DNA of 64,000 nucleotides from a virus: positions 53,320 through 117,319 of the IMG/VR virus record IMGVR_UViG_3300014158_000003. One strand, 5' to 3'. A program made the translations under genes and the position numbers. The notes beneath the pieces were generated by a model that did no database searches, was not told the origin of the DNA, and saw only the letters and a program-made list of their open reading frames with translations. Each line of letters begins with the position of its first letter. Positions within the stretch are counted from its first letter, which is position 1. Shown piece by piece: positions 13,182 to 53,777 of the stretch.

Positions 13182-14120
13182 CTATGCGAGCCCCGCACTG
13201 ACCCGCTGCCGCTGGATCCGCGTCCGGACGTCCTCCGGGTCGACCCAGCTCGCCGGCGCGCCTGCGGGGCGCCAGTAGACCGAACAGGCCACTAAACCGT
13301 CGGCGATGACGATCCACGCGCCCGCGCGCGGCAGCTCAGGTGGTTGGCCGGACTGCTGCCAGCGCAGAAAGAGGGCGCGTGCAGCCTCCGCCGGAGTGAG
13401 TCCGACCAGCATGGGGGCACCGCACGGCAGGTAGATGTTCGCGGTCCTGCCAGAAAGGACAATGAGTCCGCTTGCTTCGGCGAGCGCGCCGTCGAGGGGG
13501 AACGTGCGGATCCGGATGTCACCGAGCGCGATGTCATGCGACACCGACTCCAGCGGCTCGATCGCCTGCTGGACGAGTCGCGCGAGTCGCAACCGTTCCG
13601 CCGACGTGTCCGGCGACCCGACCGACGGGTGCGCTGGCGAGGATCCCGGCGAGCCACCCGCTGGGTGCCACGGGGGCGCTGCTGCGGGGTGGCCCGGAGG
13701 TTGACCTGGGGACCAGCCTACGGGGTCACCCTGCGGGTAACCTGGGAACTGTCCCGCAGGTTGACCCGCGGTCGGCTCGGGAGAACCTGGCGAGATCCTG
13801 CGGACCATCCAGAGATGGCCCACTCGCTCGACATAGCCGAGCGCCCCAAGCCTGTGCAGCAGCGCGTTGCCCGCGAGCGAGTGGCTCCCGCGCGATCTCG
13901 GGCTCCCGCTGCGGTCCAGTCGGTCCGGCCACATCTTCATCGAGAAGTCGGCCGCCGATAGAGCCCCGCTGCGGAGCACGTCGATCGCTCGACTGACTTC
14001 GGCCGGTTTCAGGTCGTACACGCCATCGCCAGGATAACGCGTGAGAACCTCAGCGCAATACTGGCGTGCTAGGTTGCTGGTCTCTCGGGGGCGCGGGAGG
14101 TTCTCGGAGAACATGGACAT
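13182..14120 (-). CDS. Hypothetical protein with Pro/Gly tetrapeptide-repeat linker
   Basis: Open frame from MSMFSEN. Possible winged-helix N-terminus (LLHRLGALGYVERVGHLW) and AGQP/PGQP/PGHP repeats. Confidence 0.5.
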   Translation of the reverse strand: MSMFSENLPRPRETSNLARQYCAEVLTRYPGDGVYDLKPAEVSRAIDVLRSGALSAADFSMKMWPDRLDRSGSPRSRGSHSLAGNALLHRLGALGYVERVGHLWMVRRISPGSPEPTAGQPAGQFPGYPQGDPVGWSPGQPPGHPAAAPPWHPAGGSPGSSPAHPSVGSPDTSAERLRLARLVQQAIEPLESVSHDIALGDIRIRTFPLDGALAEASGLIVLSGRTANIYLPCGAPMLVGLTPAEAARALFLRWQQSGQPPELPRAGAWIVIADGLVACSVYWRPAGAPASWVDPEDVRTRIQRQRVSAGLA

Positions 14121-14499
14121 CACTGCGCCGCCGAAAGAGCTGCAGATCGCCTTCTGCACCACCTGCAAGGGCCGAACTCCCCACATCCGGGAGACGCTGC
14201 CAGTCAACCTGCATGGCAACGCGCGGGCCCGGTTCGTCCTCGTCAACTACAACAGCCCCGACCAGCTCGACGATCTGCTCCGCGAGCGGCACATGGGCGA
14301 CATCGATAGCGGCCGACTGAGCGTCTACCGGTTCACCGAGCCAGGACCGTTCCGGATGGCGCACGCCAAGAACCTAGCCCATCGATTGGCGATCTCAGAG
14401 GGAGCGGACATCCTCGTGAACCTAGACGCGGACAACTTCGCTGGGCAGGCTTTCGACGCGTACGTGGCCGAGCGGCTCAGCGCACACGTTGACGATTGA
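14113..14499 (+). pseudogene. Truncated GT-A (GT2-like) glycosyltransferase, N-terminal half only
   Basis: IAFCTTCKGR..FVLVNYNSPD..AHAKNLA..ILVNLDADNF (DxD motif). The ORF stops about 20 aa after DxD. Confidence 0.6.
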
Positions 14500-14547
14500 C
14501 GATTCTATTTGCGCGACTCCATAACGTGAGCTAAGGGTTCCTCTGCG

Positions 14548-14664
14548 ATGAAACGCGCCGGCTCAACAGCCACGTATACCGAGCGGTCCGAAAGGGCTGC
14601 CTGGGACACGTGCGCCGTCGTGATCGGGCGCCCTTTCCAGAGCAATCCGGGTCACACCATGTAG
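14548..14664 (+). CDS. Putative attenuator leader peptide MKRAGSTATYTERSERAAWDTCAVVIGRPFQSNPGHTM (38 aa)
   Basis: ATG 14548 to TAG 14662-14664. It uses 19 amino acids and 31 distinct codons, and the stop abuts alternative hairpins. Confidence 0.65.
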   Translation: MKRAGSTATYTERSERAAWDTCAVVIGRPFQSNPGHTM

Positions 14665-14694
14665 GGCAGCTTCGCGAATACGCAACGTAGCGCG

Positions 14695-14728
14695 AGGCCG
14701 CCCGGAGAAGACCCGAGGCGGCTTTTTT
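14695..14728 (+). terminator. Intrinsic terminator upstream of the tRNA operon, overlapped by an alternative hairpin at 14664-14703
   Basis: AGGCCGCCCGG-AGAAGAC-CCGAGGCGGC followed by TTTTTT, 6 nt before the first tRNA. Confidence 0.8.
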
Positions 14729-14734
14729 CATTTC

Positions 14735-14812
14735 GGGTCGAGCGCTGGGACGCGACGGTGTCTGTAAAACACTGGCTTTCATGCTCGCTGGGTTCGATTC
14801 CCAGGCGACCCA
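14735..14812 (+). tRNA. tRNA-Tyr(GTA)
   Basis: GGGTCG/CGACCC acceptor, loop CTGTAAA, TTCGATT T-loop. Confidence 0.75.
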
Positions 14813-14859
14813 CGAGGAGAGGAGGACACGATGAAACGCACCGGTCCAAAAGAAAGCGA

Positions 14860-14931
14860 GGGACGTTAGCTCCAGGGCGGAGCGGCAGCCTTTTAAGCTG
14901 CGCGGGCCGGGTTCGATCCCCGGGCGTCCCA
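14860..14931 (+). tRNA. tRNA-Lys(TTT)
   Basis: GCAGC-CTTTTAA-GCTGC anticodon arm, GTTCGATCC. Confidence 0.85.
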
Positions 14932-14941
14932 CGACCCACGC

Positions 14942-15012
14942 GCGCCGGTAGCTCGAAGGTCGAGCAGGTGGCTCTTAACCACTCGGCGAGAGTTCGATTC
15001 TCTCTCGGCGCA
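14942..15012 (+). tRNA. tRNA-Lys(CTT)
   Basis: GGTGG-CTCTTAA-CCACT, GTTCGATTC. Confidence 0.85.
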
Positions 15013-15013
15013 C

Positions 15014-15080
15014 TGGGGATTCGATGGTCGACAGGTGGTCTCTGAAGCCGCCGACGGTGGTTCGATTCCACCATCCCCAA
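15014..15080 (+). tRNA. tRNA-Gln(CTG), short D-arm
   Basis: TGGGGAT/ATCCCCA acceptor, loop CTCTGAA. Confidence 0.7.
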
Positions 15081-15084
15081 CCGA

Positions 15085-15121
15085 TGGCCCGACGCACACG
15101 GGCTATTCGCTCCTTGACAAC
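15085..15121 (+). promoter_or_regulatory. boxB-like hairpin plus boxA-like antitermination element
   Basis: TGGCCCG-ACGCACA-CGGGCTA hairpin followed by CGCTCCTTGACAAC (rrn boxA consensus TGCTCTTTAACA). Confidence 0.55.
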
Positions 15122-15203
15122 CTGGACGCACGTGACGCGCGGGCGCGAGCTCGCGGGCGGTCTCTGCGAAGTCACGACGCGCGGGCACGTAGCCGCGCAA
15201 CAT

Positions 15204-15275
15204 TGCGATGCAGCATGAAGGTCATGCGCCCGGCTGTTAACCGGAGAGAAGCGGGTTCGACTCCTGCCTTCGCAG
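15204..15275 (+). tRNA. tRNA-Asn(GTT)
   Basis: CCGG-CTGTTAA-CCGG, GTTCGACTC. Confidence 0.8.
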
Positions 15276-15281
15276 CTCGAC

Positions 15282-15350
15282 GCCGTCTTGTACCTGGGGT
15301 CAACGCGCTCTCGTAAGGCGCGTGGCGGGGTTCGAATCCCCGAGGCGGCT
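15282..15350 (+). tRNA. tRNA-Thr(CGT), degenerate D-arm
   Basis: GCGCT-CTCGTAA-GGCGC, GTTCGAATC. Confidence 0.7.
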
Positions 15351-15355
15351 CTCAC

Positions 15356-15428
15356 GTCCCGTTCGACTTCTTGGGCAGGTCGCCGGATTCTCGATCCGGA
15401 CAGAGGGGTTCGAATCCCCTACGGGACG
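15356..15428 (+). tRNA. tRNA-Glu(CTC)
   Basis: GTCCCGT/ACGGGAC acceptor, CCGGA-TTCTCGA-TCCGG. Confidence 0.85.
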
Positions 15429-15433
15429 CTCTT

Positions 15434-15505
15434 GGTCCGCTTTCTCCTGGTGGGGTGGTCGGATTTTCAACTCGACTTCGACGGGTTCGATCCCCGTGCG
15501 GATCA
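15434..15505 (+). tRNA. tRNA-Glu(TTC), degenerate
   Basis: GGTCCGC/GCGGATC acceptor, loop TTTTCAA, GTTCGATCC. Confidence 0.65.
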
Positions 15506-15516
15506 CGAAGTAGTAC

Positions 15517-15589
15517 GCCGCGAGAGCTGGTGAGGTCATAGCGCCCGGTTGAAGCCCGGGAGAACTCCGCTCGATACGGAGTCGCGGCA
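15517..15589 (+). tRNA. tRNA-Phe(GAA)
   Basis: GCCGCGA/TCGCGGC acceptor, CCCGG-TTGAAGC-CCGGG, variant T-loop CTCGATA. Confidence 0.75.
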
Positions 15590-15600
15590 CGAAGTGGTAT

Positions 15601-15672
15601 CAGGGTGAGGTGTTTGTGGTAGCACGCTCCGTTCGGGCCGGAGTGGTGCGGGTTCGACTCCCGCCGCCCTGA
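15601..15672 (+). tRNA. tRNA-Pro(CGG)
   Basis: CTCCG-TTCGGGC-CGGAG, GTTCGACTC. Confidence 0.8.
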
Positions 15673-15674
15673 CT

Positions 15675-15748
15675 GTGACCGTGGTGTAGTGGTTTCTGCA
15701 CGGCTGGTTGTGGCCCAGCAGGTACGAGTTCAATCCTCGTCGGTCACC
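15675..15748 (+). tRNA. tRNA-His(GTG)
   Basis: GTGACCG/CGGTCAC acceptor, C discriminator, GCTGG-TTGTGGC-CCAGC. Confidence 0.85.
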
Positions 15749-15752
15749 CCAC

Positions 15753-15824
15753 CTCCTCGTCCCGCCGGATGCGGGCGGCGCACTCCTAAGGCGCACGTGC
15801 CGGGTCCGACTCCCGGCGAGGAGA
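15753..15824 (+). tRNA. tRNA-Arg(CCT)
   Basis: CTCCTCG/CGAGGAG acceptor, loop CTCCTAA, T-loop TCCGACT. Confidence 0.65.
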
Positions 15825-15830
15825 CGAAAT

Positions 15831-15903
15831 GCCCCGTGACGCGCCTGGTGGCGCGGTCAGCTTGTCACGCTGCGCGAGACGGATTCGATTTCCGTACGGG
15901 GCG
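15831..15903 (+). tRNA. tRNA-Asp(GTC)
   Basis: GCCCCGT/ACGGGGC acceptor, CAGC-TTGTCAC-GCTG, G discriminator. Confidence 0.75.
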
Positions 15904-15911
15904 CTGCGCCT

Positions 15912-15979
15912 GGGTCCATGCATCGGATGCAGCTCGGTCTCCAAAACCGAGGATGAGGGTTCGACTCCTTCTGGGCCCG
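15912..15979 (+). tRNA. tRNA-Trp(CCA), short D-arm
   Basis: TCGGT-CTCCAAA-ACCGA, GTTCGACTC. Confidence 0.75.
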
Positions 15980-15989
15980 CGAAGTAAAC

Positions 15990-16060
15990 GGGCTGCTCGT
16001 CCAACGCGAGGACACCGCTTTCGCACTGCGGAGATGGGGGTTGGATTCCCCCGCGGTCCA
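15990..16060 (+). tRNA. tRNA-Ala(CGC)
   Basis: GGGCTGC/GCGGTCC acceptor with G3:U70, loop TTCGCAC. Confidence 0.7.
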
Positions 16061-16068
16061 CTGGCTTT

Positions 16069-16139
16069 GCCCATGTCCGACGGTCGGGCTCCTCCTCGGT
16101 AAGGAGGCGCTGCGGGTTCAACTCCCGACGTGGGCTCCA
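16069..16139 (+). tRNA. tRNA-Thr(GGT), encoded CCA
   Basis: CCTCC-TCGGTAA-GGAGG, GTTCAACTC. Confidence 0.65.
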
Positions 16140-16141
16140 AC

Positions 16142-16209
16142 GCCGATCGGTCCAGGGACCACGGCCCCTTTGTATGGGCCACAGACGCGTTCGATTCGCG
16201 TGATCGGCT
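16142..16209 (+). tRNA. tRNA-Thr(TGT), irregular anticodon arm
   Basis: GCCGATC/GATCGGC acceptor, GGCCC-CTTTGTAT-GGGCC. Confidence 0.6.
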
Positions 16210-16213
16210 CCGT

Positions 16214-16284
16214 GCGGGTGTAGGTGACGGTCACCGGCGCGCCTTCCAAGCGTTGCTACCCGGGTTCGATTCCCGGCATCCGCT
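16214..16284 (+). tRNA. tRNA-Gly(TCC)
   Basis: GCGGGTG/CATCCGC acceptor, loop CTTCCAA, U discriminator. Confidence 0.8.
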
Positions 16285-16298
16285 CTGACGCTATTTGC

Positions 16299-16370
16299 GC
16301 GGGCGAGTCGGCAAGGTGCCGAGCGTGGTTGCCATCCACGTCCAGGCGAGTTCGATTCTCGTCGCCCGCT
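16299..16370 (+). tRNA. tRNA-Gly(GCC)
   Basis: GCGGGCG/CGCCCGC acceptor, CGTGG-TTGCCAT-CCACG. Confidence 0.8.
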
Positions 16371-16375
16371 CTAGT

Positions 16376-16444
16376 GAGCCGATCTTCCGGCGAAGGACGC
16401 TGATTGCAACCTAGCGAAGCCCGGTTCAACTCCGGGTCGGCTCT
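16376..16444 (+). tRNA. tRNA-Cys(GCA)
   Basis: GAGCCGA/TCGGCTC acceptor, loop TTGCAAC, U discriminator. Confidence 0.7.
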
Positions 16445-16476
16445 CCGGGCGAGGCGCAGCGATGCGCCGAGCCTGC

Positions 16477-16547
16477 GCGCTCGTCCCGGCGGATCCGGGC
16501 ATGGCACTTCTAAGGCCGTTGACTCGTTTCGACTACGAGCGAGCGTT
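16477..16547 (+). tRNA. tRNA-Arg(TCT), degenerate
   Basis: GCGCTCG/CGAGCGT acceptor, loop CTTCTAA, TTCGACT. Confidence 0.6.
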
Positions 16548-16549
16548 CC

Positions 16550-16622
16550 CTCGTCGTTCCGGCGGATTTCCGGACCGGAGTTTCCGAAACTTCGTGCCCG
16601 GGTCCGACTCCCGGCGACGAGA
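16550..16622 (+). tRNA. tRNA-Arg(CCG)
   Basis: CTCGTCG/CGACGAG acceptor, GGAGT-TTCCGAA-ACTTC. Confidence 0.65.
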
Positions 16623-16623
16623 C

Positions 16624-16693
16624 CTCCCTGCCAGCGGACCTGGCGTCGACGCTACGAACGTTGATTGCGGCCGTTCAACTCGGTCCAGGGAGA
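16624..16693 (+). tRNA. tRNA-Arg(ACG)
   Basis: CTCCCTG/CAGGGAG acceptor, CGACG-CTACGAA-CGTTG. Confidence 0.7.
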
Positions 16694-16694
16694 C

Positions 16695-16770
16695 CGCGGG
16701 GTGGCGTAGATTTAGTCGCCAGGTGGGCCCATAACCCTCCCGATGCCGGATGCAACACCGGTCTCCGCAA
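16695..16770 (+). tRNA. Initiator-type tRNA-fMet(CAT), degenerate T-loop
   Basis: CGCGGGG start with C1:A72 mismatch, GGG-CCCATAA-CCC anticodon stem. Confidence 0.65.
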
Positions 16771-16772
16771 CC

Positions 16773-16842
16773 GCCGACGACGACCGGGATCGAGCGCGCT
16801 CTCATAAGGCGCTGCAGTGGGGTTCGACTCCCCACGTCGGCA
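16773..16842 (+). tRNA. tRNA-Met or Ile2 (CAT)
   Basis: GCCGACG/CGTCGGC acceptor, GCGCT-CTCATAA-GGCGC. Confidence 0.75.
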
Positions 16843-16843
16843 C

Positions 16844-16911
16844 CGGAGGATACCTGGCGGGAGCATGCGCCCTACAAGCGCGAGCGCGGGGTCCGATTCC
16901 CCGGCCTCCGA
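16844..16911 (+). tRNA. tRNA-Val(TAC), degenerate
   Basis: CGGAGG/CCTCCG acceptor, GCGC-CCTACAA-GCGC. Confidence 0.55.
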
Positions 16912-16912
16912 C

Positions 16913-16991
16913 CGGACGCGTGCCTAAGCCGGCGGTCCCGGCGCACGTCTTATGAGCGTGTGGCTCGAGGGTTCAACTCCTGCGCGTCCGA
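16913..16991 (+). tRNA. tRNA-Ile(TAT)-like
   Basis: CGGACGC/GCGTCCG acceptor, CACGT-CTTATGA-GCGTG, GTTCAACTC. Confidence 0.55.
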
Positions 16992-16997
16992 CTCAAT

Positions 16998-17069
16998 GCG
17001 AGGCATGGCTGCTGGTGCAGCCACCGGCTCGACACGCCGGCTAGGAGGGTTCGATCCCCTCGCCTCGCA
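16998..17069 (+). tRNA. tRNA-Val(GAC)
   Basis: GCGAGGC/GCCTCGC acceptor, CCGGC-TCGACAC-GCCGG. Confidence 0.7.
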
Positions 17070-17070
17070 C

Positions 17071-17143
17071 CCCGCCCAGAGGCCCGGTTGGCCTGCGATT
17101 GCTGATAACGATCGCGCGCTGCGTTCAACTCGCAGTGGGCGGA
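17071..17143 (+). tRNA. tRNA-Ile(GAT)
   Basis: CCGCCCA/TGGGCGG acceptor, GATTG-CTGATAA-CGATC. Confidence 0.7.
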
Positions 17144-17167
17144 CAACGTGCTAGATCGAACCGCGCG

Positions 17168-17689
17168 ATGGAACCGCAGACGCTCGTGCTCACCCCGCAC
17201 ATGACTCCCCACCGGATCGCCGGTTGGCAGGAAGCGATCGTGCTCGTCTACACGGACAAGGTCGACGTGCTCGAGGAGTACGAGGCGACGATCTCGAGCC
17301 CGTCGGTGACGTTGCAGGTGCCCGCGGTGCTGCGCCTGCGCAAGGAGATGTCGCTCTTCAAGAAGGGCACGAAGTACAGCCCAGCGAACGTCATGCTCCG
17401 TGACAAGCACACGTGCTGCTACTGCGGCCAGAAGAAGCGGCCGCGCGATCTCAACATCGACCACGTCGTCCCGCGCGCGCAGGGCGGCAAGACGACGTGG
17501 CTGAACTGCGTCTCCTCGTGCCCGAGCTGCAACCGCCGCAAGGGGGCGCGCACGCCGGCGCAGGCAGGACTGAAGATGCACTTCCAGCCGCACGTGCCCA
17601 GGCAGTTGCCGTTCGCGCCGCTGCTGCTCATCGCGAAGGTGCCCGACCTATGGGTCCCCTACCTGTCGGCGAGCGCGCAGACGGCGTAG
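17168..17689 (+). CDS. HNH endonuclease (McrA-like) within the tRNA array
   Basis: TLVL..P..I.GWQEAI..PAVLRL..NVMLRDKHTCCYCG..NIDHVVPRAQGG..WLNCVSSCPSCNRRKG. Confidence 0.92.
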   Translation: MEPQTLVLTPHMTPHRIAGWQEAIVLVYTDKVDVLEEYEATISSPSVTLQVPAVLRLRKEMSLFKKGTKYSPANVMLRDKHTCCYCGQKKRPRDLNIDHVVPRAQGGKTTWLNCVSSCPSCNRRKGARTPAQAGLKMHFQPHVPRQLPFAPLLLIAKVPDLWVPYLSASAQTA

Positions 17690-17700
17690 CAAAAAAGTTT

Positions 17701-17791
17701 GGAAGGTACCGCTGAATGGTCGGCAATCCGGTTCGAACCCGGAGGCGTGGTGTAACCCATCACGGGCGTTCGATTCGTCTACTTTCCGCCA
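17701..17791 (+). tRNA. tRNA-Ser(CGA), encoded CCA
   Basis: TCCGG-TTCGAAC-CCGGA, long variable arm, GCCA end. Confidence 0.85.
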
Positions 17792-17804
17792 ACGTGAAAG
17801 CACT

Positions 17805-17889
17805 GGAAGAGGAACCGCGCGGGGCGCGGGCCGGTTTGCTAAACCGCGCGGCGGCATGAGCCGCTCTGGGTCGGGACCAGTCTCTTCCT
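17805..17889 (+). tRNA. tRNA-Ser(GCT), degenerate T-arm
   Basis: GGAAGAG/CTCTTCC acceptor, loop TTGCTAA, long variable arm. Confidence 0.6.
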
Positions 17890-17900
17890 CCGTTGCGTCG

Positions 17901-18162: not shown

Positions 18163-18235
18163 GGGTAGTGGGTCAGTTTGAGTTTCGCGTCATGACGCGC
18201 TTGCGTGACCGGTCAAGCATGGTCAAGCTCGCGGC

Positions 18236-18553
18236 ATGGCGATTCTACGTGAGCGTGTGGCGTGGTCGAAGCCGAGGGCTAGGCGTGGTCCGGACCTGAG
18301 CCCAGACGAACAGAAGGCGGTCAAGAAGGCTCTTGCGTTCCTCGCCAAGCGCCACGGCTCCCTCGTGAAGCTGTCCGCCGCGATGGGCCTGAAGCCAGAC
18401 GCGGTCGTCCATGCGGCCAGAGAGCGCGGGAGCGTTACGGCGGGCGTCGCGCTCCGGGCTGCTCGCGCTGCCGGAGTGCCTCTGGAAGACCTCCTAGCCG
18501 GCCGGTGGCCCGAGGCTGGCACTTGCCCTCTCTGCGGCCGGAAGGCAGGATGA
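18236..18553 (+). CDS. Xre-like HTH protein (IS passenger)
   Basis: SLVKLSAAMGLKPDAVVH helix-turn-helix and C-terminal CPLCG. Confidence 0.65.
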   Translation: MAILRERVAWSKPRARRGPDLSPDEQKAVKKALAFLAKRHGSLVKLSAAMGLKPDAVVHAARERGSVTAGVALRAARAAGVPLEDLLAGRWPEAGTCPLCGRKAG

Positions 18554-18557
18554 AGGC

Positions 18558-18824
18558 GTGCCTAAGCGGTCAAGCAAGAGCCCGAAACGCCCGACGGACG
18601 TGAACTCGCTGGCGGCGTCGATCGTCGCGGCGGCAACCGACGAGACGCCCCCGGAAGAGAAGGCCGAGCCGACACCCGAGGAACTGGCGCACGCGGCGGC
18701 CGTGGCCCTCGGAAGGCTCGGTGGATTGAAGGGCGGAAGAGCGCGAGCGGAGAGTCTGTCGAAGAAGAAACGTAGTGACATCGCCAAGAAAGCGGCGAAG
18801 GCGAGGTGGAGCGCAAAGCCGTGA
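18558..18824 (+). CDS. Small basic protein (GRLGGLKGG..RS.IAKKAAKARW type, IS-associated)
   Basis: KRPTDVNSLA..IV..AT and AAVALGRLGGLKGGRARAESLS motifs. Confidence 0.8.
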   Translation: MPKRSSKSPKRPTDVNSLAASIVAAATDETPPEEKAEPTPEELAHAAAVALGRLGGLKGGRARAESLSKKKRSDIAKKAAKARWSAKP

Positions 18825-18875
18825 CGCGTTCGCGATTGACGAGCCGGACCGTTGCGTGATCGCATGCATCGTCAA

Positions 18876-19853
18876 ATGCCTGAGGACGAAAAAAAGCCGC
18901 CGTACATCAAGCAGCCGGCCAAGGACGATCAGCGTCCATTTCAGCGCGTGCTGAGCGAGCACGATCTATTTGCTTCGCAGCGATTGACCCGGCGTGGCCT
19001 GCTTCAAAAAATCGAGGCCGAGACGACCGGTGAGAGGTCCGCCACCATCGGCTTCATTGGCCGCGGCGCGATCGATCCCAGAGACATCACGGCCTTTGGC
19101 GATGTCCTGATGTCGGTCGGTGATGTCGATGTCCTCAACCTGATCATCGATAGTCCTGGCGGCGACGGTTCTACGGCGGAGAAACTGATCGAACTGTGCC
19201 GCGCCTACTGCAAGACTTTCCGGGTAATGATCCCTAACCGCGCAAAGAGTGCGGGCACGATCATCGCGCTCGGCGCCGATGAGATCGTGATGGGGCACTG
19301 CTCCGAATTGGGTCCAATCGACGCGCAGGTGCCTGTGATCGTGGGCGAGATCCCTCGATACATCTCGGCACAGTCGTTTATCGACGCTCAGTTGGATCTA
19401 CAGGCTGAATTTGCAAAGCGCATCGCCGCGAATGGAAAGGCGGACGTGCGCGACATCCTGCAACAACTTGCCGCGCTCAACCTGCCGTTTATTGACCACT
19501 GCAAGAAACTCATGGGCTTCTCGCGTGACGTTGCAGAGAAGAATCTGGCCGCGCACATGTTTCGGGATGTTCAGCCCGATGCCGAGCGCAACCAAAAGGT
19601 TGCAAAGGTCATCAAGGGGCTCTCGCATCCAGAGAACTTTCAGGTGCACTCGCGAATGATCGACGGCAACACGGCCAAAACCAAGCTGGGGCTAAATGTG
19701 CGGCTTCTCGGCAAAGACGACGAACTGTGGGCCGCGATCTGGCAGTACTACATTCGCGCGGACGTTTTTCTCTCGGGCGCCCACGGCCCCGGGGCGTCTA
19801 AGCTGGTCGAATCACGGGTGGAGAGCCTACATCTAACGGCGGAACTGGAATGA
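18876..19853 (+). CDS. SDH_sah / ClpP-crotonase-fold serine protease (IS passenger)
   Basis: LIIDSPGG, AKSAGTIIALGADEIVMG..SELGPIDAQ, HSRMI. Lower GC. Start codon uncertain (18852-18876). Confidence 0.85.
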   Translation: MPEDEKKPPYIKQPAKDDQRPFQRVLSEHDLFASQRLTRRGLLQKIEAETTGERSATIGFIGRGAIDPRDITAFGDVLMSVGDVDVLNLIIDSPGGDGSTAEKLIELCRAYCKTFRVMIPNRAKSAGTIIALGADEIVMGHCSELGPIDAQVPVIVGEIPRYISAQSFIDAQLDLQAEFAKRIAANGKADVRDILQQLAALNLPFIDHCKKLMGFSRDVAEKNLAAHMFRDVQPDAERNQKVAKVIKGLSHPENFQVHSRMIDGNTAKTKLGLNVRLLGKDDELWAAIWQYYIRADVFLSGAHGPGASKLVESRVESLHLTAELE

Positions 19854-20092
19854 CTATTGCTACGCGAGAGGGGACCATGAACCGACCGACCGATAACCAG
19901 AATCCGGATGGCCACAGCTCCGAGGTCAGTCAGGCGCTGGAACTGTTCAACAGTACAGATGCAGCGCGGGACGCCGCTACAGCTCTGGAGGTGATGCGCT
20001 TGGCTGGTGCTAGCCGACGTGCGCGCACAGAACGCCGGTTCAGTCTGTCCATCAGTGGCGGGTATGTTCGATGCGAGGACGACGGCGCTTAA
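19850..20092 (+). CDS. Small hypothetical protein coupled to the protease gene
   Basis: ATGA overlap with the protease stop. Confidence 0.45.
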   Translation: MTIATREGTMNRPTDNQNPDGHSSEVSQALELFNSTDAARDAATALEVMRLAGASRRARTERRFSLSISGGYVRCEDDGA

Positions 20093-20169
20093 AGTCGCTG
20101 TTGACAATTTGTCGCTGTCGATGACCCTACAGGGGCAATGCAGTCACGATGACAGTCAAAGTGAACCGG

Positions 20170-20202
20170 ATGCTTGACTGAGCCTCAACGGTCAAGCATA
20201 CT
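20170..20202 (+). promoter_or_regulatory. Transposase promoter overlapped by a palindromic operator
   Basis: TTGACT-17 nt-CATACT inside ATGCTTGAC-N12-GTCAAGCAT. The ATG lies 7 nt after the -10 element. Confidence 0.65.
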
Positions 20203-20209
20203 GTCCAGT

Positions 20210-21082
20210 ATGAACACGCTGGACGCCGCCACCCGCACCCGCATCGTCTCGGCCCTGGTCGAGGGGAACTCGATCCGCGCGACGTGCCGCATGACCGGCG
20301 CGGCGAAGGGCACCGTCTTGAAGCTCCTGGCGGACCTCGGCGCCGCCTGCCGCGCGTACCACGACGCGAACGTGCGCGGCCTGCACTGCAAGCGGCTCCA
20401 GTGCGACGAGATCTGGTCCTTCTGCGGCGCCAAGGACAAGAATGTCCTGCCCGACGAGGAAGGCTTCGGGCGCGGCTCGATCTGGACGTGGACCGCGCTC
20501 GACGCGGACACGAAGCTGATCGCCGGCTACCACATCGGCACGCGCGACGCTGGCTGCGCCTACGAGTTCATGACCGACCTCGCGTCACGCATCGAGACGC
20601 GCGTGCAGCTCACGACCGACGGACACAAGGCGTACATCAACGCGGTCGCCGACGCGTTCGGGCCGTCGAATATCGACTACGCGATGCTCGTGAAGCTGTT
20701 TGGCGAGACGCCGGCCGGCGCAGGTCGCTACAGCCCGCCCGCGTGCATCGGGATCGAGATGCGCCCGATCATGGGCGAGCCGGACATGGAGCACGTGTCG
20801 ACCTCGTACGTCGAACGCCAGAACCTCACGATGCGGATGTCGATGCGCCGGTTCACGCGGCTCACGAACGCGTTCTCGAAGAAGTGCGAGAACCTCGCGC
20901 ACGCGGTCGCGCTCCACTTCATGCATTACAACTTCTGCCGCGTGCACCAGACGCTCCGCGTGACGCCGGCCATGGCCGCGGGGCTCACGGATCATGTGTG
21001 GGAGATCGGCGAATTGATCGCGCTCATGCCGAAGCCGGTCGCGAAGCCGTGGGGGAGCGTGAAGCGCGCGGCGGTCGCCTGA
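20210..21082 (+). CDS. IS1-family DDE transposase
   Basis: HTH (LVEGNSIRATCRMTG), QCDEIWSF, LTTDG, TSYVERQNLTMR..RRFTRLTNAFSKK, YNFCRVH..TPAMAAG. Confidence 0.93.
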   Translation: MNTLDAATRTRIVSALVEGNSIRATCRMTGAAKGTVLKLLADLGAACRAYHDANVRGLHCKRLQCDEIWSFCGAKDKNVLPDEEGFGRGSIWTWTALDADTKLIAGYHIGTRDAGCAYEFMTDLASRIETRVQLTTDGHKAYINAVADAFGPSNIDYAMLVKLFGETPAGAGRYSPPACIGIEMRPIMGEPDMEHVSTSYVERQNLTMRMSMRRFTRLTNAFSKKCENLAHAVALHFMHYNFCRVHQTLRVTPAMAAGLTDHVWEIGELIALMPKPVAKPWGSVKRAAVA

Positions 21083-21086
21083 TCGG

Positions 21087-21479
21087 TCAACGCTGCGGCA
21101 CCTTTGCCTTGAAGCCTCGCGGGGTGAATTGCGAACGGTGGAGCCCGATCCGCATCCTAGATAGGAGCGCGTCTGCAATGCACGTCTGTTTGCGGCCTGG
21201 TTGCAACGTATCGGTGTCCCCGGCCTCTACCTCTCGAAGGCCTCGGTAGAACACGTAGCTTTCGTGGGTGATGAACGGGTGCGCGTCCGGATCGCCGGGG
21301 CGAAGGATGCACGAGCGGTCCACGAACCTATCCACCGTCGTGACGTTCACGATCGTGGCGCACACCGCGAGCGAATAGTCGGGCGTGTAGACAGCCAGGA
21401 CGACCCACAGGTGATCGACGACCGCCGTCTTCGACGGGTTGAGCAGAAACGCATCCCCCGCCTCGACGGTTCCCCTCAC
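21087..21479 (-). CDS. Putative PemK/MazF-like toxin partner of the Panacea antitoxin
   Basis: GDAFL..HLWVVL..VNVTT..CIL..HPFITHESYV. GTGA overlap with the antitoxin gene. Confidence 0.5.
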   Translation of the reverse strand: MRGTVEAGDAFLLNPSKTAVVDHLWVVLAVYTPDYSLAVCATIVNVTTVDRFVDRSCILRPGDPDAHPFITHESYVFYRGLREVEAGDTDTLQPGRKQTCIADALLSRMRIGLHRSQFTPRGFKAKVPQR

Positions 21480-22051
21480 GACGAATGGATCAACCTATCG
21501 ACTGCTGCGAGATACTTTGCGCGCTTGGCGCGATCGCTGATTGCTTCGTCGTTCTCGCCGACCGCGCGGAGAATGTCAGCGGCCGGCAATGGTGCAACCT
21601 TCGCGGGCTTGGGGTGCTTCCACTCCGGAAGCCCGTGGACCACGTCGATCAGATGCGTGTATGAAACACGCTTATACTTCTTCGCGAGATCTGTCAGAAC
21701 GCCGACGTCGTAATCCGAAAGCTGATCGTCGCCCGGGTCCTCTACAAGCTCGACGTTGTAGCCTTGGGTGCGGATGCAGTGGTCCCAAAGACTGTCGGCG
21801 ACCTCGACCTCCCCCTTGATGCAGTTGTAGACCTCACTCAGAACAGGCCCGTTCGCCATGGACACGAACGTAGAGCCGGTGATCGGCTGACCGGTCTCGA
21901 TCAGCGATTGCCTGTCGGCGAGGTACAGCTCCTTCAGGATGGACGTGTAGTTCTCGGTACCACCAGCCTCGCGCAGGAGAACGGCAGCAGCTTGCACGGC
22001 TCGACGTTCGTCAAACCGGAACCTGAGTTCGCCCCCCGCTTCCAATAGCAT
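21476..22051 (-). CDS. Panacea (DUF4065/SocA-like) antitoxin
   Basis: ILKELYLADRQSLIETGQPITG..FVSMANGPV..LS..D..L..H..PEW. Confidence 0.85.
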   Translation of the reverse strand: MLLEAGGELRFRFDERRAVQAAAVLLREAGGTENYTSILKELYLADRQSLIETGQPITGSTFVSMANGPVLSEVYNCIKGEVEVADSLWDHCIRTQGYNVELVEDPGDDQLSDYDVGVLTDLAKKYKRVSYTHLIDVVHGLPEWKHPKPAKVAPLPAADILRAVGENDEAISDRAKRAKYLAAVDRLIHSS

Positions 22052-22192
22052 CGTCAACCACCATCTACCGATCCGCGCCTGCCCACGCGTTCAGGCTAAC
22101 GCTAACGTATGACATCTGCAAGCCTCAATGCTTGAGCGGTCACGCAACGCGCCGCGTCAGCCCAACTCAAACTGACCCACTACCCCCGCGTG

Positions 22193-22344: not shown

Positions 22345-22456
22345 GCGTGACTCTGTCACCAGCCCCTATAAGGGCAGGACAAGACGCAAGCGTTGCGATA
22401 GGCGGAACGTGTGCACGACGGGGATAACACTGACACGTCTCCGAGCAGCGCGCAAG

Positions 22457-51513: not shown

Positions 51514-53777
51514 CGTCCAACGCGAGCGAGATCGCGCGGAGGTGTCGGTAAATCATGACCGTCCACCGCGTTCATCCCGATGAGGAATGTGTCGAATGCG
51601 AAGGATCCGGTCACCTCGACGGGTGCGATGCCCTAGAGCCAGCCTGGGACCTCGGAGACCTCATCTGCCGCAGCCCCTGCACTGGCTGCTGCCCCAACAA
51701 GTGCCGACCGAGCGGACTGCAAGCGGAGAAAGACGCTGCTGCGGTCAAGGTACGGCGCGTTCTCAGAGACCCGCGATGACCCGCCGCGCCATCTCCCCGC
51801 CGCCCGGCTCGGTCCAGGTCCCGCGCGTCGCGTCGCTCAAGGCGCCCGCCGACTTGACGCCGACGGTGGCGCCGGCCGGCAAGCGCCACCCGGTCGCCGA
51901 CGCGGGCGCCAGGCGCCAGGAACTCGAGGTGGCCCGGCGCGCGCTCGTCGACCACGCCGCCGCCCTGCGGGGCGCACTCGCGGCCATGGACTGCGACCCA
52001 CTCGAGCTGACCAGCGTGCTGGCCGCGATCGACCACATCCTTGACGAGGAGGTACAGCGATGAGCGAGTACGGTCGTCTCTGGCAGCAGGTGAGCGATAT
52101 CCGAGACAAGCTTCACAGGCTCGTGCCTGGCACGAGCAAGTCCGAGGAGTGGAACAGGCTGCCCAACGCCGTCGCGGCGGTCGCCGAGCACACCCGCGCG
52201 CTGCACGAGCTGCTCCGGCAGTGGGCGGAGCTGGAAGCGAAGATGAACCTGATCAAGGAGTAAGACCCATGGAAACGCAAACCAACGCTGTCGGCGACAT
52301 CGCCTTCACTGTCCCCGTCCCGATCGAGGAGAGCGACGCGGCACGCGCGGATCCGGCTGCTGACGGGTCCATCTGGATCGGCAGCGTCACCCACCGCGAG
52401 GTCCTGCGACTCTGCCCGAATGGCGACATCTTCGTGCGCGGCGCGCTCGTCGAGAACGACCGGCAGGTGGTCGACGGACTGCGGGAGTTCCTGCGCTGCG
52501 CGCACGGCACGCCGCGTACCGCCGTGAACCTCTACCGGGTCGTCACCCGGTTCCCCTGGGGCCGCAGCGACGGCATCGTCGAGGCCGAGTCGATCGAACG
52601 AGCGTCGCGGCTCGTCGACCCCGACGGCCGCGCGCGCAGCGTCGACGTCGTGCTCGTCGAGATCAAAGGCGAGTCCGGCATCCGATGGATCGAAGAAGAC
52701 TCCCCAGACTCCAACGAGGAACGATGACCATCGAGCAGAAACTCCCGCAGTCACTAGCGAGCGACGAGGCGTGGCTCCGGAGCCGCGGGTGGGGTTGCTT
52801 CATGGGTACCTGGGTTCCGCCAGGCGCTTCCACCAGTGGAATGGGACAGGTGACGCACTCGCTCGAGGAGGCCCTCGCTCGCGCGCGGGCCGAGGCGGAG
52901 CAGGATCGCGAGCGCGCCAGCGTCAACACTCACGAGGAAGCCGCCCGCCGCGTCGTCCGGGAGGCCCTCTGGAGTTGCGACGAGACCCGGCCGCGCCGGT
53001 GCGCGGACCTGGCGGTCGACGCGCTCATCATGGCAGGACTCCTGGTGCCCCAGCAACCGGAGACGATCAAGTGAGAGGTGTGGACGCGACAGAGAGGAGA
53101 CTTATCCTCGACCGGACGCCGCGGGCCGCGACGCCCGAGGAGTGGGCGAAGGCGCAGGGGCTCGTCGCGCGCGGGCTCGGCGCCATCGTGTCCGAGCCGG
53201 GAGAGAGCTGGGGGACGTTCGTGCCCACACCGATCGGGCTGGTCGTGGCCTCGGTCTCGGGGGAACCTCGATGACTGCTCCGGTCCCCCACTGCCAGAGC
53301 GCCCTCGGCTGGCTCGAGGCCCGCGGCTGGGACCTCGGGCCGCTCACCCACCGGGACGTCGACGCGCTCGCCGCCATCGCGCACTGCTGGCAGCTGCTCT
53401 GGCCGTTCGGCGTCGCAGACCCGCGCCCCGCCGTCGACGCCGTGGATCCCGATCGAGATTCTGTCGCCGCGACCGCGCAAGTTGCCCGACCCGCCGCCGA
53501 AGATCGGCCCCACCAACCGCCACGAGCGGCGGGCGGCCAAGGCGCGGGACCGATGAACCACAAGCGCGGACGACCCAAGAACGCACGTGCCGGTTGCCTG
53601 TTCTGCAAGCCGCACAAGGCGAACGGCGCGAAGGGTCGAGACCCGTCGTCCGCCGTCCGCCGCACGCAGCGCGGTCGCGACGAGCGCGTGGTGCTCGAGG
53701 AGAGCATGGCGGACATCCGGCGCGAGGTGGACGCACTCTTCGGGACTTGAGCCGGGCGCTGGCAGTAGTAGCAGCCG

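Follow-up and report, generated by a model that had tools for sequence, protein, structure and literature searches.

In the attenuators of amino-acid operons (trpL, hisL, leuL, pheL, thrL and the multivalent ilvL), the position of the leading ribosome decides whether the leader RNA forms a terminator or an antiterminator. T-box riboswitches, which control synthetase and amino-acid genes, contain no open reading frame (ORF), and tRNA binds their leader RNA directly. Here we describe a candidate attenuator in front of an array of tRNA genes in viral DNA. The stretch analysed (the window) is the last 64 kb of the 117,319-bp IMG/VR virus record IMGVR_UViG_3300014158_000003 (64,000 nucleotides (nt), positions 53,320 to 117,319 of the record; 68.7% G+C). 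The element under study lies at positions 14548-14728 of the window: a short leader ORF is followed by two overlapping hairpins, a putative antiterminator and a terminator, immediately ahead of the first tRNA gene. As in attenuators of the trpL/hisL type, the ORF is short and promoter-proximal, the antiterminator and the terminator exclude each other, and a ribosome at the stop codon would mask the antiterminator 5' arm. Unlike in those attenuators, the genes under control would be tRNA genes rather than genes for biosynthetic enzymes, the element lies on a mobile cassette, and the leader has no run of a single codon of the kind seen in classical leaders, but samples 19 or 20 amino acids; moreover, a distinct anti-antiterminator is unsupported in the window, and the untranslated RNA is predicted to be read through in eight of 13 leaders. 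The element would resemble T-box riboswitches in reading the state of tRNA and in choosing between antiterminator and terminator, but it contains an ORF, and no T-box match at E up to 10 was found either in the window (14480-14740) or in L034 (3400-3720), a distant phage array described below.

Leader-ORF attenuators that sense stalled ribosomes have been reported for the resistance genes mef(E)/mel, vmlR and msrD (PMC4335068, PMC9226507, PMC10314930). The scheme proposed here shares with them, as those reports describe them, the passage of transcription beyond a terminator once the leader ribosome has stalled, and an output that aids the recovery of translation; there the stall depends on a drug together with a particular nascent peptide, whereas here the leaders have no motif conserved well enough to point to this, and their composition takes in all amino acids. 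The regulation of large phage tRNA arrays is poorly known, and the sole studied long array that we found in print is controlled by a repressor (PMC8421152, PMC10272220). This array, in Anabaena, is normally silent and is induced by translational stress via direct repeats at its promoter (PMC8421152); its repressor is TrcR, which acts at direct repeats over the -10 box (PMC10272220). Like the array of the window, the Anabaena trn L-array is a long tRNA array linked to an HNH homing endonuclease (PMC8421152). Unlike the element studied here, the Anabaena trn operon is described as repressor-controlled, and the main text of PMC8421152 contains no instance of 'attenuat', 'leader' or 'terminator'; its repeats lie over the -10 box and start site. 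In the window, a 7-base tandem repeat lies at the -35 position (14489-14502). A full-text literature search returned no account of leader-peptide control of tRNA genes, in agreement with a first-pass annotation of this stretch, made from the letters alone, whose author was aware of no such system.

The reading that we consider fairly probable is that the element is a ribosome-mediated transcription attenuator within a mobile tRNA-gene cassette, which opens the array when decoding stalls. Transcription would begin at the cassette's own promoter, at about 14496-14525, and a ribosome would translate the leader ORF, which has codons for 19 of the 20 amino acids (for all 20 in many relatives). Upon prompt arrival at the stop codon, the ribosome would cover the antiterminator 5' arm (14664-14676); the terminator at 14694-14728 would then form, and RNA polymerase would halt 6 nt before tRNA-Tyr, leaving the array off. 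If instead the ribosome were delayed in the ORF, or absent, the antiterminator would form first and permit read-through into 29 tRNA genes. Such a delay could be caused by the lack of any one charged tRNA, by tRNA cleavage, by starvation, or by a general slowing of translation. A leader working in this way would measure decoding capacity across the full set of amino acids, with the array made on demand, and the virus would probably make the array tRNAs only as ribosomes slow. The scheme presupposes that ribosome and polymerase are coupled in the host.

If this reading is true, tRNA genes would for the first time be known to be subject to ribosome-mediated attenuation, a classical mechanism of amino-acid genes, and the element would be a naturally occurring sensor of all amino acids simultaneously. 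It would allow the loss of any charged tRNA (through starvation, anticodon nucleases or other translation-directed defences) to be sensed independently of the host and tRNAs to be supplied on need, would explain how cassettes move between genomes with their regulation intact, and would offer synthetic biology a compact all-amino-acid translation sensor. Cultured material is at hand, in the form of the Tunturiibacter phage Tunturi_5 and of an array in the chromosome of Sorangium sp. So ce1014. In Tunturi_5, which infects Tunturiibacter psychrotolerans, the leader is at about 239,171-239,335 of PP885688.1, with the end of the hairpin some 45 nt beyond it; in So ce1014, the leader is on the reverse strand at about 7,855,412-7,855,567 of NZ_CP150356.1, as derived from the coordinates of L133.

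The leader and its hairpins in the window and in related arrays

The leader ORF (14548-14664, plus strand) runs from an ATG start through 38 sense codons to a TAG stop. A recount agrees with the first-pass annotation on its position and on its diversity: 19 kinds of amino acid (Leu is missing) and 31 distinct codons. The last base of the stop codon is where the 5' arm of the antiterminator hairpin begins (14664-14703, plus strand; -24.8 kcal/mol), and the 3' arm of this hairpin overlaps the 5' arm of a predicted intrinsic terminator (14694-14728, plus strand), so that the two share bases and their folds are mutually exclusive. The terminator has a GC stem within 14694-14725, six T residues at 14723-14728 and a predicted energy of -20.1 kcal/mol; only a 6-nt gap separates its T run from tRNA-Tyr, which begins at 14735. 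Both hairpins thus lie where they had been placed from the letters alone.

When 14520-14734 was folded, the minimum free energy (MFE) structure reached -94.5 kcal/mol (z = -3.34, with none of 200 shuffles equally stable). It is composed of a long hairpin at 14526-14655, the antiterminator at 14664-14703, which holds the terminator 5' arm, and a weak AG/U helix. The long hairpin (plus strand) is imperfect, encloses most of the leader ORF, carries a GAAA loop at 14590-14593, and is a possible pause or folding element. Blocking the antiterminator 5' arm in the prediction yielded the terminator fold (-84.3 kcal/mol). In predicted folds of the window with a simulated ribosome at 14560, 14590 or 14620, the antiterminator was kept; with the ribosome at the stop codon, the terminator formed instead. 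The third pairing of the first-pass annotation, an anti-antiterminator between 14594-14602 and 14664-14672, fared differently: the two segments are complementary (duplex -14.1), but a fold forced to keep them paired has an energy of -74.7, that is, 19.8 kcal/mol above the MFE, in which 14594-14602 is paired inside the long hairpin. This pairing is therefore disfavoured, and a 1:2 pairing that would give termination without translation is unsupported in the window, a departure from classical attenuators. A scan of the leader against Rfam gave no family at threshold (best 22.3 bits against a cut-off of 60), and its RcsR1 match covers little beyond the terminator.

Direct DNA searches of a phage collection returned a tRNA-Asn match alone for 14000-15100 of the window and nothing for the L034 leader, and a 701-residue protein of the virus had no relative among viral contigs. 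Relatives were found via the HNH endonuclease encoded inside the array, which has 424 homologues at E <= 1e-20 (among them P0001-P0006, which are 72-91% identical, P0001 at 91% and on a 9.6-kb contig); 37 homologues were aligned, and two collections were scanned with the alignment. Viral contigs supplied the best 80 of at least 574 confirmed stretches (L042-L121) and genome contigs a further 80 loci, while a metagenome scan with the protein supplied seven, of which the closest two (L035 and L036) end before the array start. By hand count, at least five tRNA genes are co-oriented with the HNH gene in 54 of these best 80 viral loci, and the family looks like a homing endonuclease travelling with the arrays. 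The order of the arrays is syntenic with that of the window: Tyr, Lys, Lys, Gln, Asn, Thr, Glu, Phe, Pro, His, Arg, Asp, Trp, Ala, Gly, Gly, Cys, Arg, Met, Val, Ile, the HNH gene, Ser, and then a Leu/Gln(UUG) group. The best genome-contig matches (L125-L170) come almost all from Polyangiales/Myxococcales and include complete Sorangium chromosomes with tRNA arrays; taken together with the G+C content of the window, they suggest a myxobacterial host for the virus.

One layout recurs among the arrays: a TTGAC-type promoter, an ORF of 23-63 codons, a stop codon at the antiterminator 5' arm, an overlapping terminator, and the first tRNA gene. This layout is present in 11 of the 15 viral contigs in which the array start was captured (L042, L043, L055, L059, L065, L068, L070, L071, L073, L074 and L096); at these 11 loci the short ORF ends 58-84 nt 5' of the first tRNA gene or hairpin, and a GC hairpin and a T-rich tract come after it. 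It is also present in four of the 19 Polyangiales genome contigs with a captured start, namely L133 (the Sorangium sp. So ce1014 chromosome), L137, L155 and L161, these being the four with an evident ORF and hairpin that were taken for closer study; L142 and L150 have a similar hairpin and no qualifying ORF in the scan. A codon-diverse ORF and a terminator, which the first-pass annotation had thought worth seeking 5' of other tRNA arrays, thus occur in 15 further arrays, with the cultured Tunturiibacter phage Tunturi_5 (L124), where the layout is less clear, as a weaker case. All 15 agree with its core idea of a leader for nearly all amino acids whose stop codon lies at an antiterminator competing with a terminator ahead of the tRNAs: the sequences differ, and the layout, the extreme amino-acid diversity, the coding-type composition and the covarying helices recur.

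The other four of the 15 viral contigs (L034, L045, L088 and L090) are exceptions. L090 has an ORF with 19 kinds of amino acid and no clear terminator, and L088 has no leader ORF. In L034 (3437-3690), a distant low-GC phage array of 29 tRNAs, a strong promoter (TTGACA-16-TATACT) precedes a structured leader of about 200 nt (z = -3.87) with a hairpin overlapping a terminator immediately 5' of the first tRNA gene, and no convincing ORF, the listed frame starting inside the -10 box; this leader may be a variant that works as RNA alone. The leader statistics exclude L034 and L090. In L045 (3202-3603), an ORF of 133 residues stands in place of the leader, and L077 (299-697) has one of 132 residues; they end 17 and 13 nt, respectively, 5' of tRNA-Tyr. 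Both display the pattern Cys-x2-Cys ... DH-x-H ... Cys-x2-Cys, HNH-like as judged by eye only, and look like another endonuclease gene inserted in the leader.

The predicted switch is preserved among the relatives. In an alignment of 12 terminators, 90.2% of cells are paired and six of seven pairs show two-sided changes, matched by 0-1 of 500 shuffles. The best-pairing partner of the terminator 5' arm was sought along the full length of each leader (123-216 nt): in 10 of 13 leaders, the midpoint of this partner is no more than 15 nt away from where the stop codon ends (chance about 0.17 each; none of 200,000 simulations reached 10). The window is among the three misses with the strict 12-nt arm, and with the arm extended by 10 nt its post-stop partner becomes the best (-24.8). 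When the stop-codon region is paired with the terminator arm of its own leader, the mean energy is -24.8 kcal/mol; for non-cognate pairs it is -16.6, and none of 20,000 permutations was as low as the cognate set; covariation of the antiterminator is thus measured by energy permutations, not by structural alignment. Folded transcripts that end just 5' of the terminator 3' arm have the terminator 5' arm paired to the stop-codon region in all 13 leaders. Masking the 12 nt past the stop codon, in imitation of a ribosome terminating there, yields the terminator in all 13. The MFE of the full-length RNA without a ribosome contains the antiterminator in eight of the 13 leaders and the terminator in the other five, so that folding leaves the default state unsettled. 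In L055, by our own reading of one full-length fold, the post-stop arm pairs with upstream bases of the ORF.

Promoters and starts were compared likewise. The promoter-like site of the window (14496-14525, plus strand; TTGACG, an 18-nt spacer and CATAAC), identified by a script scan, ends 22 nt 5' of the ATG. A TTGAC(A/C/G) hexamer lies 16-19 nt 5' of a -10-like box in 10 of 14 leaders, and 12 of 14 start with ATG. The -10-like box ends 6-9 nt 5' of the start codon in L065, L070, L071, L073 and L096, as well as in L043, where the promoter match is weak; this spacing fits leaderless mRNA. L090, by comparison, has AGGAGG 6 nt 5' of its start codon. Just 0-6 nt lie between the end of the T-rich tract and tRNA-Tyr in the window, L042, L055, L059 and L065, so that a second promoter would find no room there.

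Amino-acid diversity, coding composition and a Leu-rich counterpart

The leader peptides have little sequence in common and range from 23 to 63 residues. Among 16 leaders (a set from which Tunturi_5 was set aside), all 20 kinds of amino acid occur in eight (L042, L055, L065, L068, L073, L074, L096 and L155), 19 kinds in six (the window, L043, L059, L070, L137 and L161), 18 in L133, and 17 in L071, which has just 23 residues. Under the proteome composition, taken from 179,569 residues of long ORFs in the same DNA, the P values of single leaders are 0.003-0.03 (0.19 for Tunturi_5); these values overstate independence, because the leaders are related. Over 13 leaders, the log10 P values add up to -24.6 under this composition, or about -18 once a factor of 3 is allowed for each locus, since the richest of up to three overlapping frames was chosen. 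L055, L059 and L073 were scored from their first ATG rather than over their longest frames, each of which contains 20 kinds. If all 20 amino acids are taken as equally frequent, the sum is still -13.6, and the coverage of the leaders is therefore fuller than that of a uniform random draw. Among 1746 ORFs of 35-44 residues from the loci and the virus, at least 19 kinds occur in 31, of which nine are leaders, and all 20 in eight, of which five are leaders.

Base composition points to translation of these frames. The G+C content of the third codon position (GC3) is the highest of the three in 15 of 18 leader ORFs, where chance would give one in three, and mean values for positions 1, 2 and 3 are 0.57, 0.56 and 0.73, a coding-type pattern like that of genes in these G+C-rich genomes. 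The frame stays open across all changes in length (23-63 codons) and ends at the antiterminator each time. Reading the peptides by eye, we find one Cys and an Asn returning at comparable positions, encoded by synonymous codons (TGC/TGT and AAT/AAC). A further claim of the first-pass annotation, that the ORF of the window is enriched in codons rare for this DNA, has to be given up, as GC3 is 0.76-0.77 in this ORF and 0.84 in long ORFs of the genome.

A second short frame accompanies the Leu tRNAs. In the window, a Leu-rich mini-ORF (22366-22416, minus strand) of 16 codons, five for Leu and one for Gln, lies 21 nt before tRNA-Leu(cag)/tRNA-Gln(ttg), and its counterparts are at 2860-2916 of L035 (minus strand), 8356-8406 of L043 (minus strand) and 8270-8323 of L042. 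A mini-ORF thus stands directly 5' of the Leu/Gln(UUG) unit in all four arrays examined, in L042 inside the array. Of the 16-18 codons in each of these frames, 5-8 encode Leu, by several different triplets, and one or two encode Gln; the frames end 12-21 nt from the tRNA. Codons cognate to the unit's tRNAs are present for 5 of 5, 5 of 5, 3 of 4 and 5 of 5 in the four arrays. Their P values (7.5e-3 to 2.4e-5) are optimistic, because the Leu-richest frame was picked. In L043, a TTGACC-17-TAGATT box ends 7 nt 5' of the GTG start. The mini-ORFs of this kind are probably leaderless. No hairpin with a T tract follows the mini-ORF in the four arrays.

Weighing attenuation against other explanations

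Several observations speak against attenuation by an all-amino-acid leader. The promoter match of the window is weak and unlisted by the consensus scan, and the only Shine-Dalgarno-like word before the ORF is AAGGG, 10 nt 5' of the ATG. The T tract is interrupted in most relatives. The terminator in the MFE of five full-length leaders counts on the same side, as do the relatedness of the leaders and the choices of frame and of start codon described above. Cys, Trp and many other amino acids occur once per leader, without codon runs, and sensitivity to a mild amino-acid shortage may be low. The content of the leaders, too, follows that of their arrays imperfectly: Trp (L059, L161), Ser (L070) and Tyr (L137) are missing from leaders yet present in the arrays, and L065, L070 and L073 each keep one Leu codon with no Leu tRNA downstream, a codon that by eye sits in the antiterminator arm. 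Array-matched codon choice in the leaders is rejected, since codons readable by the array's own tRNAs are not enriched (326 observed, 334 expected, of 444). Finally, the word GTGCGYC, present in 8 of 12 leaders, is by eye kept in another frame in L059, so its conservation lies partly at the RNA or DNA level.

Some of these observations would also suit other explanations. The same switch could report the overall speed of translation or the availability of ribosomes, as under inhibitors, ribosome inactivation or host shut-off, and not particular charged tRNAs. We hold this to be unlikely, while granting that many amino acids occur only once and not in runs, and that the antiterminator appears without a ribosome in 8 of 13 full folds and in 13 of 13 shortened transcripts, so that any failure to reach the stop codon would open the array. 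The cyanobacterial long tRNA array, moreover, is reported to be induced by translation inhibitors, there via a repressor (PMC8421152, PMC10272220). A gauge of speed needs no full alphabet, yet the coverage of the leaders beats a uniform draw (the summed log10 P of -13.6 given above), and the Leu-rich mini-ORF of the Leu/Gln unit points to codon-specific sensing. It seems to us quite unlikely that the element acts as RNA alone (a riboswitch, a protein-binding leader, or a small RNA with its own terminator), its open frame being incidental. Such an element would have no cause to keep a frame open over 23-63 codons that always ends at the antiterminator, or to have GC3 as the highest position in 15 of 18 leaders, and the amino-acid diversity lacks an RNA-level explanation; the Rfam and T-box searches were negative as well. 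The strong structure of the leaders of the window and L034, the out-of-frame GTGCGYC of L059, and the promoter, structured leader and overlapping hairpins of L034 with no convincing ORF are what an RNA-only element would lead one to expect.

The leader could also be the gene of a small protein with a function and terminator of its own, the tRNAs being transcribed by leakage or from other promoters. A conserved ORF with coding-type GC3 and the recurring Cys and Asn with synonymous codon changes would be at home in such a gene, but the peptides diverge greatly in sequence and length, a Pfam search found no family, and a peptide that folds or binds would not be expected to use every amino acid within some 40 residues. 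As 10 of 13 leaders have their stop codon linked to the antiterminator arm and the terminator abuts the first tRNA gene, we give this possibility only a slim chance. Considered by itself, the window might even have an ORF that arose by chance in intergenic DNA of the usual kind, the hairpin then serving as the terminator of the upstream gene: by our estimate, made without computation, a 38-codon ORF is unremarkable at 63% GC, and the presence of 19 kinds among 38 residues has a P of 0.024 if the proteome composition is assumed. The features of the window are weak evidence on their own, and the excess over chance comes from the relatives. With the upstream gene a shortened remnant, the cassette beginning at 14489, and the layout recurring behind unrelated upstream genes in 15 further arrays, a chance ORF is scarcely credible.

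Returning to attenuation by the leader ribosome, the near-complete-alphabet leader and the mini-ORF can be joined in one broader proposal, which we would put at slightly better than even: mobile tRNA arrays of large phages and of myxobacterial genomes would carry built-in decoding gauges, a leader of nearly all amino acids, the time taken to translate it deciding by way of antiterminator or terminator whether about 30 tRNA genes are transcribed, and a block-specific mini-ORF rich in Leu and Gln, and the supply of tRNAs would be driven by demand, answering host tRNA-cleaving defences or starvation.

The tRNA array, the mobile cassette and neighbouring genes

Behind the terminator, the plus strand holds 23 tRNA genes by ARAGORN at its default setting and 29 at a relaxed threshold, rather than the 31 first counted. 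The 29 (14735-17891, plus strand) are co-oriented and cover 19 amino acids, Leu being the one absent; five further tRNA genes, four for Leu and one Gln-UUG, are on the minus strand (ARAGORN). The window and L043 are the two arrays with an inverted Leu/Gln(UUG) group, and in both the co-oriented array lacks exactly Leu, as does the leader. An exact mirroring of array by leader was considered and rejected, since it holds only for Leu in these two. The HNH endonuclease gene (17099-17689, plus strand; Pfam PF01844, E = 1.3e-14) lies inside the array, the beginning of its longest frame overlapping with tRNA-Ile; genes for a tyrosine recombinase and for an IS1-like transposase are nearby. A homing endonuclease in the tRNA region of phage T4 is reported to promote the inheritance of that region (PMC2330249), a case that fits the mobility of the cassette suggested here.

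Upstream of the leader lies a glycosyltransferase-like remnant (14041-14499, plus strand; weak Pfam match), corresponding to the first 150 or so residues of a protein of about 424-568 residues in relatives. Among 32 related viral loci, 30 have 289-425 extra residues past the matched part, and the frames of the other two leave the end of the locus; the rest of the gene is absent from the entire 117-kb record. None of the 32 relatives has a tRNA array (0 to 3 scattered tRNA genes per locus), and since they run on past the matched part, the upstream gene is best taken as a remnant outside the switch. Contigs from four public DNA runs match the window through 14488 and then diverge, and the match of other contigs begins at 14489. 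These breaks place the start of the cassette at 14489, and with the junction at 14488/14489 the leader belongs to the cassette and not to the upstream gene. To judge by these matches, the glycosyltransferase-like gene is interrupted by the tRNA cassette, and the four runs carry its uninterrupted continuation. The left end of the cassette (14489-14502, plus strand) is the tandem 7-base repeat mentioned above, which holds the -35-like hexamer (14496-14501). The 102 bases at 14489-14590, comprising the promoter and the first 43 bases of the ORF, are also found, 100% identical and with both flanks different, in contigs of four runs; on the basis of this shared piece, the leader may be a mosaic, or there may be a second element with the same start.

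In the window, a stretch of about 4 kb (18163-22191) splits the minus-strand Leu/Gln unit in two; in L035 the unit is contiguous. Within the 4-kb stretch are a ClpP-like SDH-type protease-like ORF (18852-19853) and an IS1-like transposase ORF (20174-21082), and a promoter-like site (18269-18242, minus strand) lies 5' of the three remaining Leu tRNAs.

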